39,258 nucleotides of DNA. Source: a virus. The notes beneath the pieces were generated by a model, which saw only the letters and a program-made list of their open reading frames with translations, was not told where the DNA came from and did not search any database. Both the position numbers and the translations under genes were made by a program. The stretch lies in IMG/VR virus record IMGVR_UViG_3300032007_000195; one strand, 5' to 3'. Below are positions 343 through 12,250 of the stretch, piece after piece (within the stretch, counting starts at the first letter, position 1; every line of letters begins with the position of its first letter).

Positions 343-380
343 GGTTCTATGTTTTATATATGATACTTTTTGTGTCAATG

Positions 381-410
381 AAAAATCCCAGGTGAGGAGA
401 GGAACCTGGG
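381..410 (-). terminator. Intrinsic terminator (minus strand)
   Basis: Minus strand reads CCCAGGT-(10-nt loop)-ACCTGGG followed by ATTTTT. Confidence 0.55.
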
Positions 411-705
411 ATTGCAGTCTTTCCTGCTGTCGAGATACCACTTGTCTCCCTAAACGTGAGATAAATAATCTTATGTAAAAATCAATAGCATTCGCAATTA
501 TTCAGAAGTCACCACATTCCTGATTGATAGCCGTTGCTCCGATAAGCATTACGCCTACGGGGATTCTCGCCCCGCTCCGAGGTGCCTTTACACCCCGCAA
601 ATAGAATGTTAAACTAAAAATAATTACTCAGTAAAATACATTATATCTCTCCTCGATGGCCCAAAGGACCACCCGCTATTTGCACCGCTGTGCTCAAAAT
701 TTAAA

Positions 706-867
706 TTAAAGTCCATAGCGACGCTTTTGCATCTCTAATCGTTCTTCGTAGGTCATATCACTGGTGATAGCCGTGCGCCTTAAGATTTCGCACCGCTCTT
801 CAAAGCTGCGGTTCGGGTTGAACTCAAAGCGACCCTCTGCGCACTCCTGCTCAAATGTCTTTGCCAT
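706..867 (-). CDS. Small hypothetical protein (53 aa, below the ORF-track cutoff)
   Basis: Hand translation gives MAKTFEQECAEGRFEFNPNRSFEERCEILRRTAITSDMTYEERLEMQKRRYGL*. The ORF sits just downstream of a terminator on the same strand as its neighbours. Confidence 0.35.
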   Translation of the reverse strand: MAKTFEQECAEGRFEFNPNRSFEERCEILRRTAITSDMTYEERLEMQKRRYGL

Positions 868-880
868 AATTCGTTCAATT

Positions 881-910
881 CGTGTTCAAAAGAAAAGAGA
901 GCCGACATAC
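881..910 (-). terminator. Intrinsic terminator after the 924-1220 gene
   Basis: Minus strand reads GAGGGCTGAC-GTAT-GTCGGCTCTC followed by TTTTCT. A near-identical hairpin is reused at 38555-38585. Confidence 0.6.
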
Positions 911-923
911 GTCAGCCCTCTAA

Positions 924-1220
924 TTATGCTTTTTTGTATTGATTCAGAATGTAATTGAATGCATAGTCTGCGTTGGGGTCGCTTCTTGCGTATAAATTTC
1001 CAATGGCAATAAGTGAGGCGTGTATGATGTCATCCGGCACCTTGCCATATTCTTTGATGATAACAGAGAGGTCTTTCCCTATCTTCTTGCTTACGGTCTC
1101 CTCTGCCTTGATTATAAGAGCTTGAATATCGCCGTCTATCTTCCGTTGCTCAGCAGGGTCCTCTCTATAGAAGTCTATGCGAAGATGCTTCTTCACCATA
1201 TCTATTGTTACACAACTCAT
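924..1220 (-). CDS. Head-tail connector / DNA-packaging adaptor, gp6-like (paralogue 1)
   Basis: 98 aa. The N-terminus VTIDMVKKHLRIDFYREDPAE...IQALIIKAEE matches the typical gp6-like pattern (xxLeeaKaHLRiD..dDd..I..li.aA). Confidence 0.55.
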   Translation of the reverse strand: MSCVTIDMVKKHLRIDFYREDPAEQRKIDGDIQALIIKAEETVSKKIGKDLSVIIKEYGKVPDDIIHASLIAIGNLYARSDPNADYAFNYILNQYKKA

Positions 1221-1225
1221 TCTCT

Positions 1226-1678
1226 CTAAAAATTGGGTACTCCTATGTATCTCCAGTAAAGGTTGTCGGTGACGCGAATCTTAGCTGAATGGTCATATGG
1301 ACCAACCATGCCGTCTGATGTGGTGGCGAAATATCGCTTCTCCTCTTCTATGCGGAAGTAACACATCTGCATCTTGAATTCGCCGCTATCGTCTTTAATG
1401 GCGACAAGGATAAATCCCTCGTGCGTTGGCAATCCTTCGCAAGCCTTTTGCCACGGGTAACCCTTTAGCTCTGATGAGAATTCCTCGTCGTTCTCGTGGC
1501 GGTTGCCCACCTGCTTGGCAGTGAATGTCTGGCCGTCCACCTCGATGGTGGCTTCGCACGAATCCCATCCTGCTGTATAATCCTTGGCTATCGCATCAAT
1601 ATATTCCTGGAAGTCACTGTTGTCCTTGTCCGTTGTATTCTCTTCGTAAGTTGCAACGATTGTTAGTTTCTCTTTCAT
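1226..1678 (-). CDS. Hypothetical protein (150 aa)
   Basis: Long ORF tightly packed between TerL and the connector gene. No motif recognised. Confidence 0.65.
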   Translation of the reverse strand: MKEKLTIVATYEENTTDKDNSDFQEYIDAIAKDYTAGWDSCEATIEVDGQTFTAKQVGNRHENDEEFSSELKGYPWQKACEGLPTHEGFILVAIKDDSGEFKMQMCYFRIEEEKRYFATTSDGMVGPYDHSAKIRVTDNLYWRYIGVPNF

Positions 1679-1691
1679 GTTTGTAGTCGTA

Positions 1692-1716
1692 ATTATGAAT
1701 TATGAATTATGAATTG
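1692..1716 (-). repeat. Heptamer tandem repeat (minus strand TCATAAT x3) spanning the TerL stop codon
   Basis: Plus strand reads attatga x3. On the minus strand TAA recurs every 7 nt, which puts stops in all three frames. Confidence 0.8.
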
Positions 1717-3683
1717 ATTTTAACTTCTGCTGCGTCGTACAGAATCAGCGCACTAAGCAGCATCTGAACATTGTCTACCTTGCCGTTGGCATCGCGCTTC
1801 ACGGGTTTGAGATTCTCCATACCGTCGTTCGATTCCTGGAGCATCACATTGCCAAACTGCCAGGGCCAGAGGGGGTTCTGGCTGAAGTGAATCATGGGGT
1901 CTGGTATCTGATGCCCCATTCCGTCGTCTCGGCTGCGTCTGACCATATAGTCGAACTCCTTAACGGCAGGAGAATAGTTGCCGAACTTCTGGCTGACCGG
2001 CACTATCATCTGCTTGGGATCGAGCCCGATGTCGAACACCCATTGGCTGAGGGCATTTATTACCATCTTGGCATTGAATGGATCGTAACCGAAGCCAAAG
2101 AACTCCACATCCTTGCCGTCCAGCTCGATGATTCTGTTTACCGGCCACGATGGGTCGAAGGTCTGACCAGGCACTATGTGCAGCCATCCGTCTGCCGCCC
2201 ACTTCAGCAAGAGCTCGCGTAGGGGGCTCTCGTTGACCGCCTTCTCTGACATGTACGAATCCATGTCGGCAAAGAATTCTCCCGTCCGTGGGTTGTAGGC
2301 CAGATAGCTTACTCCGTTCAGGTCGTCCCCCTTGCTGAAGTCGAAGCCTGCCCATACCATCCAACCGTAGCCGCGTGAGCAGTCGTCGATGCGGCGTCCA
2401 ATCTGCAAGGGCCGGATGTCGTCTGGCGTTAGCCAACCCTTCACGGTGTTGGATGAGTAGACGTTGAACAGCTTGCTGAACAACTCGCCTCGCGTCATCT
2501 TGCCGTTGTACATATCGCTGATGCTGTCATCGTAGAACTGATGCTGGCAGGTGATGCCCAGCATGGGGTTTATCTTGCGGCGGATGTCCTTGGATGTCAG
2601 CAGCAGCTCCTCGTCGTACTTCTCCCAATCGTCGGGTTCGAGCAACAGACAGAGCTGGCGATCTTGGCTCAATGTCGGTGTCTCTTCGCCGGAGTCGAAC
2701 TTAAGTTCCAGTAGAAGGTTCTGATGCAAGCCTGCCAACATGTCGATGAATGGCCCCGATGTTATGGTGCCTGCCGTTGTGGTGCCAAAGGTTAGTCCCT
2801 CGCGGCGGGGTCCCATACTGGAGCGCATCACGTTAACGAGGTTCATCATGTCGCTCTTTCCGTTGGTGTATGGGCTGCTCCCGAGCTCATCCCAGTTGAC
2901 CAGCTCGGCAAATGGGCCATCCTTTGTCTTGCCGCCTGCCGTCAGAGGCATTATCATGGCATTGCGAACTTGGTGGAACTTAGGCTTCCATTGGATGGAC
3001 TTCGATGTCATGTCGAATCGCTGCTTAGTATCGGCATCCTTCAGCATGAATCGTGTACGGCCATAAAGTATGCGACTCTGGAATTCGGCATTGGCACAAC
3101 AGTATATCTCCGAGTTGTAGTCGCCCATCAGGAAGAATACTACCTGAATGAAGGCGGACATTCCCGTCTTGTCAGTCTTTCTTGGCGTGTACAATACGAA
3201 GTAGTTGCACAGCCTGCGAAAGTCCTCTACCATGCCATCCTCTCGCTCGCGTTCTGTCAGCAAAAGCTCTGACTTGTCGATTGCCTGAACTCCGGTGTCG
3301 AACCAAGTATGGAAGCCAAAGACAGAGGCAAGCACGAACACCTGGAATGGTTGCCACCTGTAGACGTGAGCGGTGTCTGTGCCTGGGCACTTGATGCCGC
3401 CACGGACATGGTGCCAACGCCCCCTCTCGTCCTGCTGCCATTCTCCTTCGCGTAGCTTGATAATCTGCTGCACTCGCCGTTCGTTGAACTCGTATGTTCT
3501 GAGCAGCCGTAAGAACTTTACGGCACAAAGAATCTCGTAGCCGTTGTGCAGCTCGGGGTTGTACATTAATCCGATATAGTAATCATACAGACGCTTGTCG
3601 ATTGCATCCAGGGCTTGCATGGCCATCTCGTCCAATCTTCTGATTAATATGCCGTGCGCCTGCTTTTTCTCCTCTTGTGTCAT
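1707..3683 (-). CDS. terL: Terminase large subunit
   Basis: 658 aa. P-loop-like YTPRKTDKTGMSAF. Size and overall layout are typical of Terminase_1-type TerL, and the gene is preceded by a small terminase and an HNH gene. Confidence 0.88.
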   Translation of the reverse strand: MTQEEKKQAHGILIRRLDEMAMQALDAIDKRLYDYYIGLMYNPELHNGYEILCAVKFLRLLRTYEFNERRVQQIIKLREGEWQQDERGRWHHVRGGIKCPGTDTAHVYRWQPFQVFVLASVFGFHTWFDTGVQAIDKSELLLTEREREDGMVEDFRRLCNYFVLYTPRKTDKTGMSAFIQVVFFLMGDYNSEIYCCANAEFQSRILYGRTRFMLKDADTKQRFDMTSKSIQWKPKFHQVRNAMIMPLTAGGKTKDGPFAELVNWDELGSSPYTNGKSDMMNLVNVMRSSMGPRREGLTFGTTTAGTITSGPFIDMLAGLHQNLLLELKFDSGEETPTLSQDRQLCLLLEPDDWEKYDEELLLTSKDIRRKINPMLGITCQHQFYDDSISDMYNGKMTRGELFSKLFNVYSSNTVKGWLTPDDIRPLQIGRRIDDCSRGYGWMVWAGFDFSKGDDLNGVSYLAYNPRTGEFFADMDSYMSEKAVNESPLRELLLKWAADGWLHIVPGQTFDPSWPVNRIIELDGKDVEFFGFGYDPFNAKMVINALSQWVFDIGLDPKQMIVPVSQKFGNYSPAVKEFDYMVRRSRDDGMGHQIPDPMIHFSQNPLWPWQFGNVMLQESNDGMENLKPVKRDANGKVDNVQMLLSALILYDAAEVKINS

Positions 3684-3689
3684 AGTCTC

Positions 3690-4055
3690 TTATTTCTGTG
3701 ATAACATCGAAAGTACAGGATCGTCTTCGTCTATATCGTTGCCTGTGGCAGTAGCGGATTTGCCCTTGTTGGTAAGCCCAAGGGCCTCGAACTGTCGGAT
3801 GAGGGTGTTCTGCATCTTGTCGTACTTGTCGAGCAAGGGGTGAACATCAATCTTCTGCTGTCCCATCGAGCCGGTCATGGAGTTGGTGATATTCTCCTTC
3901 TCCAGCTGGCTCTGCATCTTGTCGAGGATAATCATGTTCATTGCCGTGGCCCTTAGCATTGGCATTAGCCAAGGGTCGAAGCCTGCTGATGTCTTCTGTT
4001 GTATCAGTTCCTTCAGCTCCTCGATGTAGTCTTGTGTTGTTTTATCTTTTCCCAT
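3690..4055 (-). CDS. terS: Terminase small subunit (P27-family-like)
   Basis: 121 aa, immediately upstream of TerL. Helical and charged with an acidic C-terminus. The call rests on size and position. Confidence 0.55.
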   Translation of the reverse strand: MGKDKTTQDYIEELKELIQQKTSAGFDPWLMPMLRATAMNMIILDKMQSQLEKENITNSMTGSMGQQKIDVHPLLDKYDKMQNTLIRQFEALGLTNKGKSATATGNDIDEDDPVLSMLSQK

Positions 4056-4056
4056 G

Positions 4057-4401
4057 TTATCTATGGAATTTAATCGTTAATTGTAGGGTGCATTCATAGG
4101 GTATTCGGCACTCGTTGTAGGTCTGAACACCCACCCCGAGCTGACGGTTGGGTAACTGCATCCATGCCTCCCAACGGTTGTCGCAAGGTCGGTGCCAGGG
4201 GTGATTAACGTCTCTGCTGGATGCCCTCACGCGGGCTCCTCGCTGGGTCAAAGCCTCCATAGTGCCGATGCAGACGTGCGTTTCCTTGCTGTTCTTTGGC
4301 CGGACAACCGACTTGGGTACCAGACCCAGAAGCGGACATTCTGCACAACAATCTGGCTGAATCGGAGGTAGCTTGATTAGTACAATATTGCGTCGTGGCA
4401 T
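4057..4401 (-). CDS. Hypothetical Cys-rich protein (114 aa)
   Basis: ORF abuts TerS. Contains CCAEC...C...C motifs. No family recognised. Confidence 0.5.
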   Translation of the reverse strand: MPRRNIVLIKLPPIQPDCCAECPLLGLVPKSVVRPKNSKETHVCIGTMEALTQRGARVRASSRDVNHPWHRPCDNRWEAWMQLPNRQLGVGVQTYNECRIPYECTLQLTIKFHR

Positions 4402-4593
4402 TTATTTTTCTTTTAAGTGGTAATTTGTGTTCTCTGAATTGCCCTTTTTTAGAGGTGGTGGCATTGTTCCAACATTGGCTATTATGTAGTGTGGGAAAAA
4501 ACGCTATCTCTAAAAATCCCTCTCTCGATAGAGGGAAGGGGCAGTGGATTTCGGATTCTTTTCCTTTTGCCAATAAACGAGGCCCCGAGGGTT

Positions 4594-4923
4594 TTATCCA
4601 TGTCTGTCTATCCACCTTTGCAGCCGCTCGTCTTCCCGCTGCTTGTGCGCTTCCTTTGTATGGCTTAGGGCCTCGCGGTGCACTTTGGCGTGGCAACTTA
4701 TACAAAGGCTTTGCAAGTTGTGGGGATTGAAACAGAGTTGCTCCATCTCATAGAGTGTTCGGGCGGATTCGCAAGGCTCTTTGTGGTGAATATCAATGGC
4801 ACTGGTCACATAACCTTCTGCCTGGCATAGCTCGCACAATGGGTTCTGTTCCAGCTTCCATGCTCTCAGTTCCTTCCATCGCTTGCTGTTCAGCAGCTTC
4901 TGGTATCGTTTATCTCTGCTCAT
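4594..4923 (-). CDS. HNH endonuclease (packaging-associated)
   Basis: CELCQAEG...IDIHHKEP...NLQSLCISCHAKVH is a classic HNH/zinc-finger signature. The gene lies upstream of the terminase genes, as in HK97-like cos phages. Confidence 0.88.
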   Translation of the reverse strand: MSRDKRYQKLLNSKRWKELRAWKLEQNPLCELCQAEGYVTSAIDIHHKEPCESARTLYEMEQLCFNPHNLQSLCISCHAKVHREALSHTKEAHKQREDERLQRWIDRHG

Positions 4924-4938
4924 GGTGGTGTAACTTTA

Positions 4939-4969
4939 ATTCTTCACTCTTCATTCTTCATTCTTCATT
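4939..4969 (-). repeat. 31-nt element, copy A (attcttcactcttcattcttcattcttcatt); exact copy at 36657-36687
   Basis: Identical 31-mers read directly from the sequence. The minus strand is (A)ATGAAGA x3 then GTGAAGA, so TGA recurs with period 7. The upstream gene stops in the first TGA. Confidence 0.9.
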
Positions 4970-5609
4970 TCGATTCGCGCTGTGAATCGAACATGTCAGG
5001 TGTCTTCTTCATCTTCCTTCGGTACTGGGTATCGCCTGGCTTCTGGCCGAAGTCGCCACGATCATTGTCCTCGAAGTCTTCCAACAGTTGCCGCTTCTGC
5101 TCTTCCTCCTCCAGCTCTCCCACCACATCCAGCAGTAGTTCGAAGATGCTGCTGCATTGCCGACATGCTGCAATGAATCGCATTCGCATGTATAGCTGAG
5201 GGAATGTCAGGTTGAGGAATCGTTCCAATATCTGCTGGACGTTGAAGTTCTGCTTCCATTGCCCAAAGAACGGGCGTTCGACGTGCATTACCACCACACC
5301 CTTTTTGCCTTCCTTGTCGTTCAGGTAGTAGGTTGCCTCTGCCACCTCGGGCTTGGCATTGGGGTCGGCAAGGTTGAAGTTGTCCTCCCATCCTACCATA
5401 CCCTCGAACACGCCTACCACCTTCTCGCTCTCGGGAGTCAGGTTGTGTTTGTCGTCCATGTGTTTTACCATGCTGGCGCATGTGTTCTGAATCATCTGGT
5501 AGGTGTTGATGCCTCGCTTGTTCAGCAACCGCATCAGCCTGCCATAACACCAGGTGCTAATCTTACCGGCGACACTAACGTAGGTGCCTTCTTCTGTCTG
5601 CTTCTTCAT
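4965..5609 (-). CDS. Hypothetical protein (214 aa), acidic C-terminal region
   Basis: Long ORF in the early/replication block. No motif recognised. Confidence 0.65.
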   Translation of the reverse strand: MKKQTEEGTYVSVAGKISTWCYGRLMRLLNKRGINTYQMIQNTCASMVKHMDDKHNLTPESEKVVGVFEGMVGWEDNFNLADPNAKPEVAEATYYLNDKEGKKGVVVMHVERPFFGQWKQNFNVQQILERFLNLTFPQLYMRMRFIAACRQCSSIFELLLDVVGELEEEEQKRQLLEDFEDNDRGDFGQKPGDTQYRRKMKKTPDMFDSQRESK

Positions 5610-5801: not shown

Positions 5802-6908
5802 TTATTTGTTTGTTTTAGAATCGTTAATTATCCGCAGCACCACGTCCGCGATGTCTGCCTTCTCTCCGTCCTGTGGTTGCCACCATTCCTTTACTGCCTG
5901 GGTGTTCAGCATCAGCCCCGAGTAGTTTATCTCCGTGGCTTTCTTCAGCCACCTGTTAATGCCGTCCCTGTCTGGGAAGAGTTGAATCTTGCGGCCTTGG
6001 TCAATAAGTGGCTGCAACCGCTCGCGCTTAAGGTTCTGCATACCGCAGCATGCCATCCATACTTGCGAGGCATTGTTGCCGTAGGCTATCGCCATAATGA
6101 CTGCCGTCTTCTCGCTCTCCACGATATTGACCGTTGCCGTTGGGTAGGCGTTCAGCAGGTGTTGCCCGAACAGGCAGTAGCTGGCCGCTTCCTTCTTTTC
6201 GTCAAAGTGGTTGTGGCCTTTTGCGTCTCTCATCATAGCGTGCAACCACGTCTGACTATAATGACTTTCTTTATCTCTATGTCCATCCTGGCGGTACTTC
6301 ATCATGTGAAAGTTATGAAGGACGTTCTGCTCATCCACCATCGGCCATATAGTAAATTCGTTCTTATAACCGTACTTTTCTATACATACATGCCCTACGT
6401 GGTATTCGTTCAGGGCTTTCCACATATTCTTGCGCTGGCAGTCGTCCCAAGGTTGGGATTGCAGCCAATTCACAAAGTTGTCATTGCTCAGGTTCTTGTA
6501 GTCCTTGTAGTACCTTATCCATGCGGTAGGCCACGTCCTCTTTGGCAGGTTGTCTTCAATGGTATTCATGTCTCTTGGTTTAGCGGGTTTTATCTTCTTG
6601 AATTTCTCGCGGTTATAGTCTTCATTGATGGTGATGCCGTACTTTGTTGCCAGATAGCGCAATGCATCAGGGTACGACAGATGCTCGTAGTTCATCAGGA
6701 AGTCAATAGGACCTCCTCCAGCATCGCAACTGAAGCACTTATAACAATTCCTTGCAGGATGTACTACAAAGCTGCCCAGTTTATGGTCATCATGAAAAGG
6801 GCAAAGGCACTGGTAGTTGACTCCTTTCTTCTTCAGCGTCAGGAAGTCGCTTACGACATCCACGATGCCCGCCGCGTCCTTTATCTTCTGTTCCGTAAGT
6901 TTATCCAT
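5802..6908 (-). CDS. DNA primase (CHC2 zinc finger plus Toprim)
   Basis: CLCPFHDDHKLGSFVVHPARNCYKCFSCDAGG is a CHC2 zinc finger. IVESEKTA and FPDRDG are Toprim acidic motifs. I placed the start at MDKLTEQK (6908), because the track's upstream extension reads through a GC-rich noncoding region. Confidence 0.85.
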   Translation of the reverse strand: MDKLTEQKIKDAAGIVDVVSDFLTLKKKGVNYQCLCPFHDDHKLGSFVVHPARNCYKCFSCDAGGGPIDFLMNYEHLSYPDALRYLATKYGITINEDYNREKFKKIKPAKPRDMNTIEDNLPKRTWPTAWIRYYKDYKNLSNDNFVNWLQSQPWDDCQRKNMWKALNEYHVGHVCIEKYGYKNEFTIWPMVDEQNVLHNFHMMKYRQDGHRDKESHYSQTWLHAMMRDAKGHNHFDEKKEAASYCLFGQHLLNAYPTATVNIVESEKTAVIMAIAYGNNASQVWMACCGMQNLKRERLQPLIDQGRKIQLFPDRDGINRWLKKATEINYSGLMLNTQAVKEWWQPQDGEKADIADVVLRIINDSKTNK

Positions 6909-8252: not shown

Positions 8253-8544
8253 AGTCGCGTGCTAATATTATATCCTTTAGTTCTTGTTTACGCTTCTTAA
8301 TATCCTCTTCCAGCATCCGCATCTTAATCTTGTGGCCGAACTTCTTGCTGTTCTCGTATGCCACACGCAGAGCCTTTATTTCGTTGATGCCCTTGCGGAT
8401 ATTCTCACGCCAACGTCGCTCATCGGCAAGCATCTGGTCGGCATATCGTTCGCCGTCCCAACTGGTGTTGCCTTGGTAGGCTCCATTGGTGGAGGTTGGC
8501 ATCTTCAGCTCGTCGTCATCATCCCATAAGTCTATATTGAACAT
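8236..8544 (-). CDS. Hypothetical protein (102 aa)
   Basis: The ORF overlaps the start of the ATPase gene by 17 nt, an operon-like arrangement. Confidence 0.55.
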   Translation of the reverse strand: MFNIDLWDDDDELKMPTSTNGAYQGNTSWDGERYADQMLADERRWRENIRKGINEIKALRVAYENSKKFGHKIKMRMLEEDIKKRKQELKDIILARDYEWRE

Positions 8545-8570
8545 ATATTTGTGTTTTAGTTGTAGTCGTT

Positions 8571-8602
8571 AAAAAAGACGGCGATCTTCACAGACAGCCG
8601 CC
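8571..8602 (-). terminator. Intrinsic terminator closing the 9165-8571 noncoding locus
   Basis: Minus strand reads GGCGGC-(14-nt loop)-GCCGTC followed by TTTTTT. Confidence 0.5.
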
Positions 8603-9165
8603 ATGTTTAAAATATCATACATACTTCGTGTAATATGCTTGCCTACCGCTGTAGGCTCCGATAAAAAACCTAATGAAAAAGTAATTAAATGGTGTATTCA
8701 TGCACTCTGCGTTTCTGCGGGCTTGTGACCGCCATTTGGCCGCATTACATCCGCCACTATGGTATTGTCCACGGTGGCGGTATATATAATCCTACATACC
8801 CGCCCTTCGCCCTGTCTCATGGTTTCCCAACTAAGGACTACTTTCGGGTATCATGCTTGGTGTATCAATATGTCAAAGGTCGATTAAGTAGCAGTGAGCA
8901 GGAGAGGCGCCCAATCTCTCTTCATTAACGTAAGGGCTGTACGACATGCTATCTTGGTGGGATGTGCAGGATTCGAACCTGCGGCGACCTCTTATCTGAG
9001 GTTGGATAATCGTATTATCCATTACTATTTACGAGCGTATTTCTACGACGGCTTTCATCCTCTCAGCCAACATCCCGGATGCTGCTCGGAAGTCCAAGTC
9101 TTACCTACTTGTCCGAAGGCTTTCGCCTCTTATCAGTATTTCGCAGCAGTTTAGTTTAGTTTAGT
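8603..9165 (-). ncRNA. Candidate large structured noncoding RNA locus (contains the tRNA-like element)
   Basis: 563 nt with no credible ORF on either strand, bounded by the SSB-like stop and a terminator. Nested helices: 9080-9085 pairs with 9143-9148 and encloses GAGGC-GAAA-GCCTT and TCGGA(CAAGT-loop-ACTTG)TCCGA. Confidence 0.35.
8955..9076 (-). tRNA. Non-canonical tRNA-like element (122 nt) with acceptor stem, class-II-like D arm, T arm and encoded CCA, but no standard anticodon arm
   Basis: The 5' GGGATGT pairs with the 3' ACATCCC, followed by A-CCA. T arm GCAGG-TTCGAAT-CCTGC. D arm GCT-GAGAGGATGAA-AGC. The interior holds three hairpins: CGTA-GAAA-TACG, TGGATAAT-ACG-ATTATCCA and ACCTC-AGATAA-GAGGT. 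Confidence 0.4.
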
Positions 9166-9168
9166 TTA
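9149..9168 (-). repeat. Pentamer tandem repeat (minus strand TAAAC x4) starting at the SSB-like stop codon
   Basis: Plus strand reads gttta x4. TAA recurs every 5 nt, which puts stops in all three frames. Confidence 0.85.
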
Positions 9169-9552
9169 GAAGGGTAAGTCGGACCCGTCGTTATTGGACG
9201 GTGCAGGGGCCTCTGTATTAGGTTGCTCTGCTGGCTTATTAGCAGCCTCTGCTGCTTCTGCCTGCTTTGCCTTCTCCTCTGCATAGTCGGCGATTCTGTA
9301 TGCGTAGAATCTGTTATACCAACGTCCGTTGTACTCGGTAGCATCCACATCGAATTCTATCCTCACCGTCTTGCCTACCAGGGCATCGAACTGTGCAATC
9401 CTGCCAATGTTACCATCGCGGACATCTACCACCATCTTCTTAGGATACATACCTACTGTTTCCAGCAGGAACTGCGCTGCCTTCCAGTGTCCGTTCTGGC
9501 TATCGCCTTCGCGCTCTTCCGTTTTCTTTAATAAAATTCCTACAAAATCCAT
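9166..9552 (-). CDS. DUF3127-type OB-fold protein with an SSB-like acidic C-terminal tip
   Basis: The core ...WKAAQFLLET...YPKKMVVDV...VRIEFDVDATEYNGRWYNRFYAYRI matches my recollection of DUF3127. An Ala/Glu/Pro linker ends in DGSDLPF, similar to the DDDIPF tail of SSB. Confidence 0.6.
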   Translation of the reverse strand: MDFVGILLKKTEEREGDSQNGHWKAAQFLLETVGMYPKKMVVDVRDGNIGRIAQFDALVGKTVRIEFDVDATEYNGRWYNRFYAYRIADYAEEKAKQAEAAEAANKPAEQPNTEAPAPSNNDGSDLPF

Positions 9553-10810: not shown

Positions 10811-11041
10811 AATAAACGAGTGTATTAACTGCTAAAATCGCCAAATGTTTCCCCACTTTCACACTCTCCCCCTGATTCTCAACAACTTACACCTCCCATT
10901 CGAGCCCCATCCGAATCACAACAAAAATGATGGGAACACCGTATTTATCGGGGGTTTGCGAGGTTTCGGAAAAATAGGGGTAAAACAAAAGGCGGACGAT
11001 TTTGGTCGATTTTGGTCGATTTTGGCTAAATGTTTCCCCAC

Positions 11042-11073
11042 TGTTTACCCACTGCAATCTGGGTGGGTAAACA
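11042..11073. promoter_or_regulatory. Perfect 11-bp inverted repeat TGTTTACCCAC-(10 nt)-GTGGGTAAACA directly upstream of int (candidate attP core or int operator)
   Basis: Read directly from the sequence. Nearby repeats: AAATGTTTCCCCACT at 10843 and 11028, and gattttggtc repeated about 2.7 times at 10999-11028. Confidence 0.35.
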
Positions 11074-11089
11074 CAAATCAAAAAATCCT

Positions 11090-12250
11090 ATGATTACAAC
11101 AGCAATTGTATTTGACCACAGAGGTAGGACAAAGAGAGGTGCAGAAGGACCCCTGGAAGTCCGGCTGACCATTGACCGTAAACCATACTATATTAATACA
11201 GGTGTGCGTGTGTACGCGAGGCAATGGGCCTTCGATAAGGTTGTAAACCATCCATGCGCTGACTCACTGAATGAGCGTCTGGCTATTATCCTTGATTCGG
11301 TGATGAGAGACATTAACTTCGCCCTGAAGCATCATACGGAGATAGATATTGTCAGACTTAAGCGTCATGCTTGGGGTTGCGCTCAGTCGGCCAACTTCAT
11401 TGAATGGATGCAGGAGGAGATTAAGATTCTGCGAGTGCGCGACATCAGGCACTATAATAGTGCACTTCGCAAGATCATAGAGTATGGCGGTATGCAAGAT
11501 TGGTCAGACGTAACACCAGAGAACATATACAAGTTGGATGCTTGGCTGCGCAAGCTACCAGGGCGCACGAATGGCAAAATATCTTCTGGCGGTGTATATA
11601 ACTACCACAAGTGTATTAAGGCGTTGCTGAGGCGCGCAGAGCGCACAGGATTGCTTGCAGCGAATCCGTATAACAAGCTCAATGGGGAATTTCAGAGAGG
11701 GGAGCAGGAGAACACCGAATACCTCACAGAAGATGAGATGAAGGCCATTATGGATTTTGCCCCCACCCCTGGCACTTGGTTGGCTAAGGCGCGCGACCTT
11801 TTTATCTTTCAAATGTGGACGGGCATGTCGTATGCAGATGCGCAGGCTTTCGACATCAAGGCCTATAAGAAAATTAATAATAAATGGCTTATCGTCAACT
11901 CTCGAATCAAGACAGGGCAACCGTTCGTCAATCAGTTGCTGCCGCCTGCGGTGGAGGTCTTGGAGCGGTATGAGATGTCGGTGCCTAAGATCAGCAACCA
12001 GGTGTACAACCGAGAGCTGAAGATTGTGGGTGCTGCGTGCGGATTGAACATCAAGCTGCACACGCATCTGGCAAGACATACATTCGCCACCTACATGCTG
12101 CGCAATGGCGTTCGTATGGAGAATGTGTCAAAGATGCTCGGGCATGCGTCCATTAAGCAGACGCAACGGTATGCGAAGGTTCTCGCTGAGAGCGTTCAAG
12201 AAGATTTTGATATGATAGATGCAAAGCTGAAAAGCAAAACAAAGCCCTGA
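11090..12250 (+). CDS. int: Tyrosine integrase (site-specific recombinase)
   Basis: The C-terminal HLARHTFATYML...LGHASIKQTQRYAKV carries the R..H..R..Y catalytic signature. The N-terminal MITTAIVFDHRGRTK...LEVRLTIDRKPYYINTG is typical of Bacteroidetes phage/ICE integrases. I placed the start at 11090. Confidence 0.9.
   Translation: MITTAIVFDHRGRTKRGAEGPLEVRLTIDRKPYYINTGVRVYARQWAFDKVVNHPCADSLNERLAIILDSVMRDINFALKHHTEIDIVRLKRHAWGCAQSANFIEWMQEEIKILRVRDIRHYNSALRKIIEYGGMQDWSDVTPENIYKLDAWLRKLPGRTNGKISSGGVYNYHKCIKALLRRAERTGLLAANPYNKLNGEFQRGEQENTEYLTEDEMKAIMDFAPTPGTWLAKARDLFIFQMWTGMSYADAQAFDIKAYKKINNKWLIVNSRIKTGQPFVNQLLPPAVEVLERYEMSVPKISNQVYNRELKIVGAACGLNIKLHTHLARHTFATYMLRNGVRMENVSKMLGHASIKQTQRYAKVLAESVQEDFDMIDAKLKSKTKP

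Follow-up and report, generated by a model that had tools for sequence, protein, structure and literature searches.

The type-P1 twister ribozyme (Rfam RF03160) was reportedly described by Roth et al. in 2014, and what bacterial twisters do biologically has been a standing question ever since they were first found. The RAGATH motifs, RNAs that occur in the vicinity of twisters and hammerheads, are said to come from a 2015 study by Weinberg et al. Maturation of noncoding RNAs through a linked tRNA or tRNA-like fold is known from the tRNA-miRNA units of murine gammaherpesvirus 68 and from MALAT1 and mascRNA, and among phage RNAs the C4 RNAs of P1 and P7 and the CI RNA of P4 are matured by RNase P. 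RAGATH-18 is the guide RNA of IS607 TnpB (PMC11061315), and theta ribozymes, which are minimal HDV-like ribozymes, adjoin gut-phage tRNAs, where they have been proposed to trim the tRNA 3' trailer (PMC10879173). In mitochondrial polycistronic transcripts tRNAs serve as punctuation (PMC3790967), and there are engineered cassettes in which a guide RNA follows a tRNA or is enclosed by two ribozymes (for example, 10.1101/2021.01.08.425823).

Here we describe a locus in which a degenerate tRNA, a structured RNA that we call X_A, and a twister ribozyme follow one another in a temperate Bacteroidales phage of the cattle rumen. The stretch analyzed, referred to as the window, is 39,258 nt long (IMG/VR record IMGVR_UViG_3300032007_000195). 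The noncoding locus takes up ~600 nt of its minus strand, reading from 9165 to 8571 within the early (replication) operon, and consists, together with the gene before it, of the following features:

9166 to 9552, minus strand: gene for a DUF3127 SSB-like protein ending in ...DLPF (Pfam PF11325, E = 1.5e-17)
9077 to 9165, minus strand: leader hairpin domain
8955 to 9076, minus strand: degenerate tRNA (tRNA-like element), 122 nt
8747 to 8954, minus strand: X_A structured RNA, ~208 nt after predicted processing
8699 to 8751, minus strand: type-P1 twister ribozyme, predicted cut U8747/A8746
8603 to 8698, minus strand: AU-rich tail
8571 to 8602, minus strand: intrinsic terminator

We lean, if only by a little, towards the reading that this cassette matures by means of its tRNA-like handle and its twister and so releases X_A as a stable noncoding RNA from the early operon transcript. 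RNase P and RNase Z would act on the tRNA-like element as their handle, and the twister would set the 3' end.

The first-pass annotation of this DNA had described a transcribed, structured, noncoding RNA locus, and this is correct. It had also seen no credible ORF; mechanical ORFs of 22-86 aa are present, none of them conserved. One antisense frame is open in four of nine relatives and broken in the window, L182, and L002, and in relatives the sense ORFs run into frameshifts or stop codons, breaks that rule out a conserved small ORF on either strand. A 7-codon in-frame AUG...UAG mini-ORF within helices P4-P5 of X_A is accounted for by the fixed helix lengths. The minus strand can be identified as the transcribed one from the covariation in X_A, independent compensatory variants, and G-U pairs. 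One bovine metatranscriptome contig spans 10205 to 8866 and thereby joins the upstream genes, the leader, the tRNA-like element, and part of X_A: the cassette is co-transcribed with the operon, shares an early promoter near 10.2 kb with the upstream genes, and is expressed early. Metatranscriptome coverage of the phage is uneven and the integrase has none, so the signal is as expected for RNA; the contig breaks at 8866 and 8694/8695, coming from assembled contigs of one low-depth metatranscriptome, are not interpretable as the predicted cuts. The locus contains no iterons, other notable repeats, or origin-of-replication features and has no similarity to known phages and plasmids. An attP remnant is improbable, given that the integrase is 2 kb distant and on the far side of the repressor gene.

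The search for relatives of X_A began with exact-pattern scans, which covered viral contigs, genomes, and metagenomes, and went on to nhmmer and a covariance model on ~155 fetched loci. The family has nine distinct members, every one of them from a rumen-type phage contig or a Bacteroidales prophage; no others were found among the ~155 loci, and the family is small and narrow. The order of DUF3127 gene, 5' element, X_A, 3' element, and next gene is the same in all nine distinct loci, the DUF3127 SSB-like gene being the gene directly upstream of X_A in every member. Between this gene and the next one the gap is 540-715 nt with the cassette versus 2-350 nt without it, so the cassette is an accessory insertion, and we infer that the role of X_A is likewise accessory, rather than in core replication. 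The distance from the tRNA discriminator base to the first conserved X_A base is 2-9 nt in seven of the nine loci, across a conserved C-A-rich linker, and conservation at the 3' side ends at a hairpin 0-9 nt before twister P1 or the 5' end of a 3' tRNA, again in seven of nine; in L240 and L004 a spacer of ~40 or ~170 nt follows this hairpin. The flanking elements are interchangeable across relatives. At the 3' side, the window, L182, L002, and L254 have a twister, and L318, L268, L369, L240, and L004 have a tRNA or tRNA-like element. One metagenome contig keeps the leader and X_A and has 149 other bases in place of 8932-9107, which include the tRNA-like element. The L001 locus keeps the leader, twister, and tail of the window and has a tRNA-Phe and a different middle RNA (X_B), which has a fold z-score of -0.8 and for which no relatives were found.

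This modularity bears on the headline of the first-pass annotation, in which the whole 600 nt would form a single large ornate RNA of the GOLLD or ROOL kind enclosing a tRNA. The locus does resemble these RNAs in being long and noncoding, with many hairpins and a tRNA-like neighbor, and GOLLD and ROOL are likewise found in prophages and often adjacent to tRNAs. However, they are single RNAs of 500-800 nt with Rfam models of their own, and in Rfam 15 neither of them, nor tmRNA, matches the locus at E <= 10; the only Rfam signals at E <= 0.05 in 39 kb are those for tRNA (37.8 bits) and twister (52 bits). The modules recombine independently, a self-cleaving ribozyme inside the locus, together with the sites of tRNA processing, would sever the transcript, and the whole-fold z-score is only -2.6 (20 shuffles). 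The absence of an Rfam match, the independent swapping of modules, and the self-cleaving module leave the one-large-RNA reading unsupported, and we consider it extremely improbable; the locus is a composite of separable RNA modules with a conserved core of 208 nt.

The tRNA-like element was largely described correctly from the outset. It has a 7-bp acceptor stem (GGGATGT/ACATCCC), discriminator A8958, an encoded CCA (8957-8955), a T arm with its T-loop (GCAGG-TTCGAAT-CCTGC), and a D arm of 3-4 bp of the long-variable-arm (class II) type. Sequence and MFE fold agree on the three hairpins first noted (z = -4.2; 0/200 shuffles as good); for the one given as an 8-bp stem capped by ACG, a 5-bp stem closing the 7-nt loop AU-ACG-AU is an equally good drawing. 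The anticodon region is enlarged by ~30 nt, made up of a GAAA hairpin and AAAUAGUAAU, and the variable arm is long. Using Infernal, the Rfam tRNA model (RF00005) reaches 37.8 bits, above its gathering score of 29 (E = 5e-6 locally, 1.4e-4 for the whole window), which is far above chance, with a match that requires long insertions, one of 37 nt. A canonical anticodon arm, with a 5-bp stem, a 7-nt loop containing U33, and the usual spacing from the D arm, is absent. ARAGORN in default mode finds neither a tRNA nor a tmRNA in the window; in intron mode only, it forces a 'Tyr(AUA)' that assumes a 24-nt intron and has G33. With no standard call and no identifiable anticodon in default mode, the element is, as first proposed, not an ordinary tRNA. 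Nor does it belong to a tmRNA, for which there is no Rfam match: a permuted tmRNA called by ARAGORN only at an 80% threshold is spurious, as its 5' acceptor strand pairs with ACAUCCC at 3/7 positions and its 'tag' falls within the twister core.

Could the 122-nt element nevertheless be a working decoding tRNA with extra arms (Arg-ACG or a spliced 'Tyr-AUA'), unrelated to the rest of the locus? It has kept an intact acceptor stem, D arm, T arm, discriminator, and CCA, GGAUA-AUACGAU-UAUCC can be drawn as an anticodon arm around ACG with U33 and A37, the intron mode of ARAGORN does yield a call, and canonical tRNAs stand at the same position in L254, as tRNA-Ser(GCU), and in L001. Against this, ~30 extra bases separate the D arm from the putative anticodon arm, which to our knowledge no tRNA accommodates, ARAGORN is silent by default, and the intron-mode call depends on a G at position 33 and on a 24-nt intron for which we know of no bacterial splicing route. 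The homologous elements of L318 and L268, aberrant tRNAs with the same AAAUAGUAAU insert as in the window, receive differing and unnatural anticodons (inconsistent ARAGORN calls of Ile-AAU and Tyr-AUA), and the minimal element of L182 consists of an acceptor stem and T arm and has no anticodon arm. A decoding function therefore seems very unlikely.

Phage tRNAs that counteract tRNA-cleaving defenses exist, and by this precedent the tRNA-like element, perhaps with X_A, might be a decoy or sponge for host defenses that target tRNAs, such as anticodon nucleases or tRNA-cleaving effectors; that the cassette is accessory and expressed early would fit such a role. However, the anticodon arm, the usual target of these nucleases, is the very part that is not conserved, and no defense or counter-defense gene is linked to the cassette. 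The replacement of the element in relatives by canonical tRNAs, by other sequences such as the 80-nt tRNA-like element of L002, or by a non-tRNA 'Y element' (L240, at 6087-6186, and L369) is a poor fit to a decoy as well, and we hold this explanation to be quite doubtful. The comparative data favor the processing handle, which the first-pass annotation had raised as a secondary idea. A tRNA or tRNA-like fold directly abuts a conserved non-tRNA RNA in seven of the nine loci, and what the degenerate tRNA has retained, the acceptor stem, T arm, and D arm, would be just what processing enzymes need.

The remaining ~350 nt had been set down as further noncoding sequence. Noncoding it is, but it contains both the best-conserved structured RNA of the locus and a ribozyme, neither of which had been recognized. 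The ribozyme, at 8699-8751, matches the twister model RF03160 with 52 bits (E = 2e-10 in the local scan, 6e-9 for the whole window), short of the gathering score of 67.2 because the optional P3 hairpin is absent. P1, P2, and P4 occur in the family order with 11 stem pairs; across five loci the fold is 98.8% paired (0/500 shuffles as good), and compensatory changes affect three pairs of P1, one of P2, and one of P4. The T1 and T2 pseudoknots were placed by what we take to be the published fold: T2 covaries, being CAC/GUG in most loci and CCC/GGG in L182, and T1 (GC/GC) is invariant and hence uninformative. Each of the core segments UAA, GCC, GGUC.CAAGCCCG, AAA, and GAG.G occurs here, as does the U-A cleavage step; the one deviation in the window is a G for a usually conserved U at the P4-P2 junction. 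Self-cleavage of the twister is predicted at U8747/A8746; the cut would give X_A a terminal 2',3'-cyclic phosphate, and the downstream RNA would start with a 5'-OH. The same CAC-variant core occurs in >110 viral contigs, and of 119 phage sites of this variant only six have a tRNA within 900 nt upstream, so the cassette is specific to the X_A-carrying group.

X_A itself, between the two flanking elements, is a previously undescribed structured RNA family, with the following parts:

8947-8951 with 8889-8893, minus strand: helix P1
8941-8943 with 8929-8931, minus strand: helix P2
8916-8920 with 8902-8906, minus strand: helix P3
8935-8937 with 8909-8911, minus strand: loop-loop pseudoknot
8845-8851 with 8796-8802, minus strand: helix P4
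AGUA/GAA: internal loop, sarcin-ricin-like
8834-8838 with 8809-8813, minus strand: helix P5
8827-8829 with 8820-8822, minus strand: helix P6, with a GAAA cap
8774-8780 with 8751-8757, minus strand: 3' hairpin P7

The 5' end is bound up in P1, and this helix can lengthen to 7 bp from G2. The covariation check on related loci that the first-pass annotation had proposed strongly supports a conserved fold: of 31 pairs, 99.3% of cells are paired and 16 show double changes, 0/500 shuffles are as good, and slid controls are 24-50% paired. Further compensatory variants occur at P3, P5, and P6 in other metagenomes. Alignments A1 and A2 contain the invariant blocks AGAYAGCAUGUCGUA, CACUGCU, UUGAC, GCAUGA, CGAAAGUA, UAGU, UGAG, and GAAGGGCG, and the window copy has P1-P6, the loop-loop pseudoknot, and these blocks; its score of 191.7 bits with the X_A covariance model is expected by construction. 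The MFE z-score of X_A is unremarkable (-0.97). No Rfam 15 family matches X_A at E <= 10, and GOLLD, ROOL, tmRNA, group I intron, HDV-like, hammerhead, hatchet, pistol, T-box, 6S, and Y RNA models find nothing in the locus at E <= 10 or in seven relatives at E <= 1. A weak similarity to DUF2693-RNA (13.9 bits, E = 8.4) was rejected, being confined to the P5-P6 hairpin, and looking for antisense targets of the conserved CUGCUCACUGCU block gave nothing above chance. The long invariant unpaired stretches, the loop-loop pseudoknot, and the sarcin-ricin-like loop suggest that X_A acts in trans, in all likelihood through binding to a protein or another RNA.

Invariant unpaired stretches and a pseudoknot are also what one sees in ligand-binding RNAs, and X_A lies in an operon directly before a ribozyme and a terminator, a position suited to a cis-acting, riboswitch-like aptamer or attenuator that would control either the twister or how far transcription passes the terminator and enters the helicase and primase genes. 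But a tRNA or tRNA-like element takes the place of the twister in five of the nine loci, and several loci lack a terminator and continue at once with the next gene. The expression platform is not conserved, and we think a cis-acting sensor unlikely. Little more can be said for X_A as a catalyst, for example, a new self-cleaver that removes the 3' trailer from the upstream tRNA or sets its own 5' end. Such activity would suit the start of X_A only 2-9 nt past the discriminator base, the involvement of its 5' end in P1, and the lack of any other known 5'-end determinant in L240 and L369, and theta ribozymes beside gut-phage tRNAs offer a precedent (PMC10879173). However, X_A matches no Rfam ribozyme family, its topology, as we read the helices, differs from the nested double pseudoknot of HDV-like ribozymes, and at 208 nt it is far above the size of any small self-cleaver, which makes catalysis about as unlikely as sensing.

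Maturation by handle and twister, the reading we prefer, would proceed as follows. Host RNase P would cut at the 5' side of the tRNA-like element and free the DUF3127 mRNA with a protective hairpin domain, the leader, as its 3' end. This leader opens with (ACUAA)n repeats at 9148-9165 and continues with a Y-shaped hairpin domain (9080-9148), in which folding bears out the helix first noted between 9143-9148 and 9080-9085 and the second GAAA tetraloop, in a GGC-GAAA-GCC hairpin. The leader is common to L001 (nhmmer E = 1.4e-13), with one compensatory pair (UCGGA/UCCGA to GCGGA/UCCGC), and other relatives have unrelated stable hairpins at this position, or none. A hammerhead candidate in the leader was dismissed on reading its sequence, as CUGAUAAG has an A at the place of the catalytic G8 and stem II is not followed by GAAA. 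RNase Z or host 3' trimming would cut at the 3' side of the tRNA-like element and generate the 5' end of X_A at ~8954-8957. Encoded CCA blocks RNase Z in several bacteria, and because the tRNA-like element has one, this end is not exactly fixed. Self-cleavage of the twister at U8747/A8746, four bases past the terminal hairpin, would give the 3' end; the cargo so produced would be a compact, pseudoknotted X_A of ~208 nt with a 2',3'-cyclic phosphate end. The tail, with a hairpin at 8641-8656 (GCCUAC-AGCG-GUAGGC) that is kept with the rest of the tail in L001 (nhmmer E = 2.2e-12), would remain joined to the ribozyme once the twister cuts, and the terminator would then halt most transcription. 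A minus-strand terminator had been proposed at 8571-8602 and is real: it folds as GGCGGC-U-GUCU-GUGA-AGAU-C-GCCGUC followed by U6, with a 6+4-bp stem and GUGA loop, and is kept in L001 with a compensatory change (GUCU/AGAU to GCCU/AGGU). A consensus terminator scanner makes no call there. L182 and L002 have analogous terminators 3' of their twisters. The next gene starts at 8544, 27 nt past the terminator; helicase and primase genes lie downstream. Precise 5' excision may not be universal, because L240 and L369 have no known processing element before X_A, and some of the flanking canonical tRNAs may simply be tRNA genes.

X_A adds an uncatalogued and well-supported RNA family to the rumen Bacteroidales phages, which have almost no characterized noncoding RNAs, and it would give a bacterial twister a concrete, testable job in the 3'-end formation of a conserved RNA. 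The locus also suggests that degenerate tRNAs can be processing signals in phages, as in mitochondria and one herpesvirus, and that tRNAs, tRNA-like elements, and ribozymes are interchangeable as processing elements. Since tRNA finders miss or misassign such elements, phage 'tRNA' annotations with unnatural anticodons merit a re-check. A bolder reading, to which we assign a rather low probability, is that X_A is a new functional class of RNA (a ribozyme acting on the adjoining tRNA or its own 5' end, or an RNA that is part of, or a decoy for, a protein complex that rumen phages use for host manipulation), that the Y element is a new processing ribozyme, and that together they constitute a natural system for excising RNA in which tRNA, ribozyme, and cargo modules combine in plug-and-play fashion.

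Compared with the systems described so far, we rate X_A as a new family and its maturation scheme as a known scheme, newly varied. The ribozyme has the same core, P1, P2, P4, T1, T2, and U-A cleavage site as the type-P1 twisters, differing in the absent optional P3, in its score (52 versus 67.2 bits), and in the G for a conserved U; most bacterial copies have no known role, whereas here the twister is proposed to set where a conserved RNA ends on its 3' side. As in the known tRNA-linked noncoding RNA units, a tRNA or tRNA-like fold abuts another RNA and host tRNA enzymes would define an end, and the tRNA-like parts of the herpesvirus units likewise lack decoding features. Here, however, the setting is a DNA phage of Bacteroidales and the cargo is a 208-nt pseudoknotted RNA rather than a hairpin or antisense RNA; the other end would be made by a ribozyme or a second tRNA, the handles are freely swapped, and the cuts are predicted ones. 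Theta ribozymes share with this locus the gut Bacteroidota phages, a self-cleaver beside a tRNA, and independence of that cleavage from host nucleases, but they lie directly 3' of a functional (suppressor) tRNA, which is the product, whereas here the twister follows a degenerate tRNA at a distance of 208 nt, and the product is apparently the RNA between them. The RAGATH motifs, too, are conserved structured RNAs that adjoin twisters in phage-like DNA, RAGATH-18 being a functional neighbor of this kind; since X_A is unmatched in Rfam at E <= 10, the RAGATH motifs held in Rfam 15 are excluded, and none of the 10 window proteins scanned against Pfam gave a TnpB-like match. The logic of the locus is also that of the engineered cassettes, in which an RNA is flanked by a tRNA, a self-cleaving ribozyme, or both for precise excision; those are man-made, and the phage locus would be their natural counterpart.

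The noncoding locus downstream of the DUF3127 SSB-like gene is a cassette built around a conserved structured RNA of about 208 nt, X_A, which represents a new RNA family. All cassette features lie on the minus strand, as do the early operon, which encodes an AAA_25 ATPase and a DnaG-type primase, and the large terminase gene. The window, which also carries an integrase and a repressor-like gene, is a temperate phage or prophage; the locus is present in public runs from bovine gut, manure and related metagenomes, and a comparison of the window with 50,697 deposited phage genomes and 72,556 plasmids turned up no counterpart.

Features of the window
11030-12250, integrase
9166-9552 (-), DUF3127 SSB-like protein gene (Pfam E = 1.5e-17)
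9077-9165 (-), leader
8955-9076 (-), 122-nt tRNA-like element
8747-8954 (-), X_A
8699-8751 (-), type-P1 twister ribozyme (sensitive Rfam scan, 52 bits, E = 2e-10)
8603-8698 (-), tail
8571-8602 (-), terminator

Relatives were sought by searching IMG/VR with the DUF3127 protein, then viral, genome and metagenome collections with DNA patterns, and then with nhmmer. This yielded nine distinct X_A loci, including the window and a prophage in a rumen Bacteroidales MAG (L318). In all nine the order is DUF3127 gene, 5' element, X_A, 3' element, next gene, and the identity of the flanking elements varies.

Elements flanking X_A in the nine loci (5' element; 3' element)
Window: 122-nt tRNA-like; twister
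L182: minimal element, acceptor stem and T arm only; twister
L002: 80-nt tRNA-like, 39.4 bits, without an ARAGORN call; twister
L254: canonical tRNA-Ser(GCU); twister
L318 and L268: aberrant tRNAs with the window's AAAUAGUAAU insert (ARAGORN: Ile-AAU and Tyr-AUA); tRNA or tRNA-like
L369 and L240: non-tRNA Y element; tRNA (in L369 a canonical tRNA-Ser)
L004: Y element within a tRNA-like frame of about 250 nt; tRNA-like

The tRNA 3' of X_A in L240 (6432-6507, +) has an 8-nt anticodon loop and is output by ARAGORN as 'tRNA-??? (acca)'; it either reads quadruplet codons or is one more tRNA in decay. The gap to the next gene is 2-350 nt in more distant, cassette-free DUF3127 loci and 540-715 nt where the cassette is present, so the cassette is an accessory insertion.

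X_A is a structured RNA. Its alignment (nine sequences, about 180-210 nt) has a mean column identity of 74% with long invariant blocks, and a model of seven helices, including a loop-loop pseudoknot, leaves 99.3% of 279 cells paired, with changes on both sides in 16 of 31 pairs; none of 500 shuffles was as good, and slid controls were 24-50% paired. Independent compensatory changes affecting P3 (37-51), P5 (119-144, with two distinct pair types) and P6 (126-135) were seen in contigs of four further metagenomes, and G-U pairs identify the minus strand as the RNA strand. P4 and P5 are separated by an AGUA/GAA internal loop that, to our reading, looks like a sarcin-ricin (bulged-G) motif. X_A has no match in Rfam 15, and its covariance model found no additional members in the approximately 155 loci searched. 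The absence of credible coding sequence, noted in the first-pass annotation, holds when the window is compared with its relatives, which share no conserved ORF on either strand. A 79-aa frame antisense to X_A (8689-8928, +) is open in four of nine relatives; in those nearest to the window it is broken, and most copies have no start codon. It probably arises as a side effect of sequence conservation.

On its 3' side X_A adjoins a new member of the twister family, which was absent from the first-pass annotation. At E <= 0.05, the twister and the tRNA hit are the sole Rfam signals across the window, and the twister scores below the gathering score of 67.2 because the optional P3 hairpin is absent. 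Its fold is 98.8% paired over five loci (0 of 500 shuffles match), with compensatory changes in P1, P2, P4 and the pseudoknot T2 (CAC/GUG versus CCC/GGG), and cleavage is predicted between U8747 and A8746. The exact core GCGGTCACAAGCCCGC, which carries the CAC form of T2, occurs in more than 110 IMG/VR contigs (viral contigs L047-L160), with an ARAGORN tRNA within 900 nt upstream at just 6 of 119 sites; this variant is common in phages, mostly in contexts other than tRNA-linked ones.

The 5' tRNA-like element is a decayed tRNA. It was accurately described from sequence as having a 7-bp acceptor stem, class II type D arm, textbook T arm, discriminator A and CCA, and three hairpins rather than a single anticodon arm between the D and T arms; the MFE fold agrees (z = -4.2). 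Only by accommodating a 37-nt insertion does the Rfam tRNA model reach 37.8 bits (gathering score, 29), and ARAGORN in default mode calls neither a tRNA nor a tmRNA. We rejected a tRNA-Tyr(AUA), which intron mode forces by positing an intron of 24 nt and placing G at position 33, and a permuted tmRNA, returned only at a relaxed threshold with unpaired acceptor strands and the tag inside the ribozyme. The leader helices and the terminator are likewise real, the latter retained with a compensatory change in the related locus L001. Two short segments shared by leader and tRNA-like element (9038-9056/9106-9124, GAAAGCC.UCG.A; 8988-8996/9126-9134, GAUAAGAGG) hint that the leader originated as a partial copy of the tRNA-like element, although the matches could be chance. 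Tandem ACUAA/ACUAAA repeats directly after the DUF3127 stop codon (9148-9167, -), found in the same place in several relatives including L002 and L182, could be a nuclease or protein-binding site.

Cassette modules are exchanged among loci, as seen in L001 and in a metagenome contig from run X6. L001 shares the window's leader, twister, tail and terminator and differs in a canonical tRNA-Phe and a 288-nt middle segment, X_B (L001:3491-3778, +), between the leader/tRNA position and the twister; the contig keeps the leader and X_A and has 149 unrelated bases in place of 8932-9107, joining 8931 to 9108. A search found no relatives of X_B, whose fold has a z-score of -0.8; the segment could be either an alternative cargo or a cargo in decay. 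The Y element, of about 100 nt (L240:6087-6186, +; L369:3790-3887, -; L004:3331-3424, +), stands in for the 5' tRNA-like element ahead of X_A. Its fold is a three-way junction preceded by a D-arm-like hairpin; the loops AAAGGGAAAG, GUA and ACA.CGG.AC are invariant, and four pairs show compensatory changes across the three sequences. The Y element matches no Rfam family and may be a novel ribozyme, aptamer or processing element.

The simplest reading of the flanking elements is that they are processing signals. They are interchangeable across loci, a self-cleaving ribozyme alternating with a tRNA on the 3' side, and X_A conservation starts and stops within a few bases of them in seven of nine loci (L240 and L004 have a spacer before the 3' element). 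All tRNA-type elements have in common an acceptor stem, a T arm and usually a D arm, the features that RNase P and RNase Z recognise, and nothing else; the anticodon region can degenerate or grow without constraint. We therefore lean, with modest confidence, towards a model in which the flanking elements would cut X_A out of the early operon transcript, parting it from the neighbouring mRNAs, and the leader hairpins would then guard the 3' end thereby created on the upstream mRNA. In one bovine metatranscriptome run, a contig from 10205 to 8866 spans early genes, leader and tRNA-like element and stops inside X_A, and further contigs cover 8498-8694; as these are assembled contigs, their ends are not readable as processing sites. 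The patchy coverage of the phage, with none over the integrase, speaks for an RNA origin and against DNA contamination. Depth is highest over 1-667 (28.7), and contigs of metatranscriptome runs X3 and X24 link position 371 to 5483 via CTACT, which may reflect a related genome without about 5 kb, or a rearrangement. X_A would, as our best guess, act in trans by binding protein or RNA; live alternatives are that it serves as a cis sensor, a new ribozyme or a defence decoy.

Excision of X_A by its flanking elements would follow the same logic as herpesvirus tRNA-miRNA units and MALAT1-mascRNA. Mitochondrial tRNA punctuation shares it too (PMC3790967), and the theta-ribozyme-tRNA pairs of gut phages also combine a tRNA with a ribozyme (PMC10879173). 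A literature search found no paper describing the combination in the X_A cassette, which, with its freely swapped handles, is a new arrangement of a known maturation scheme.
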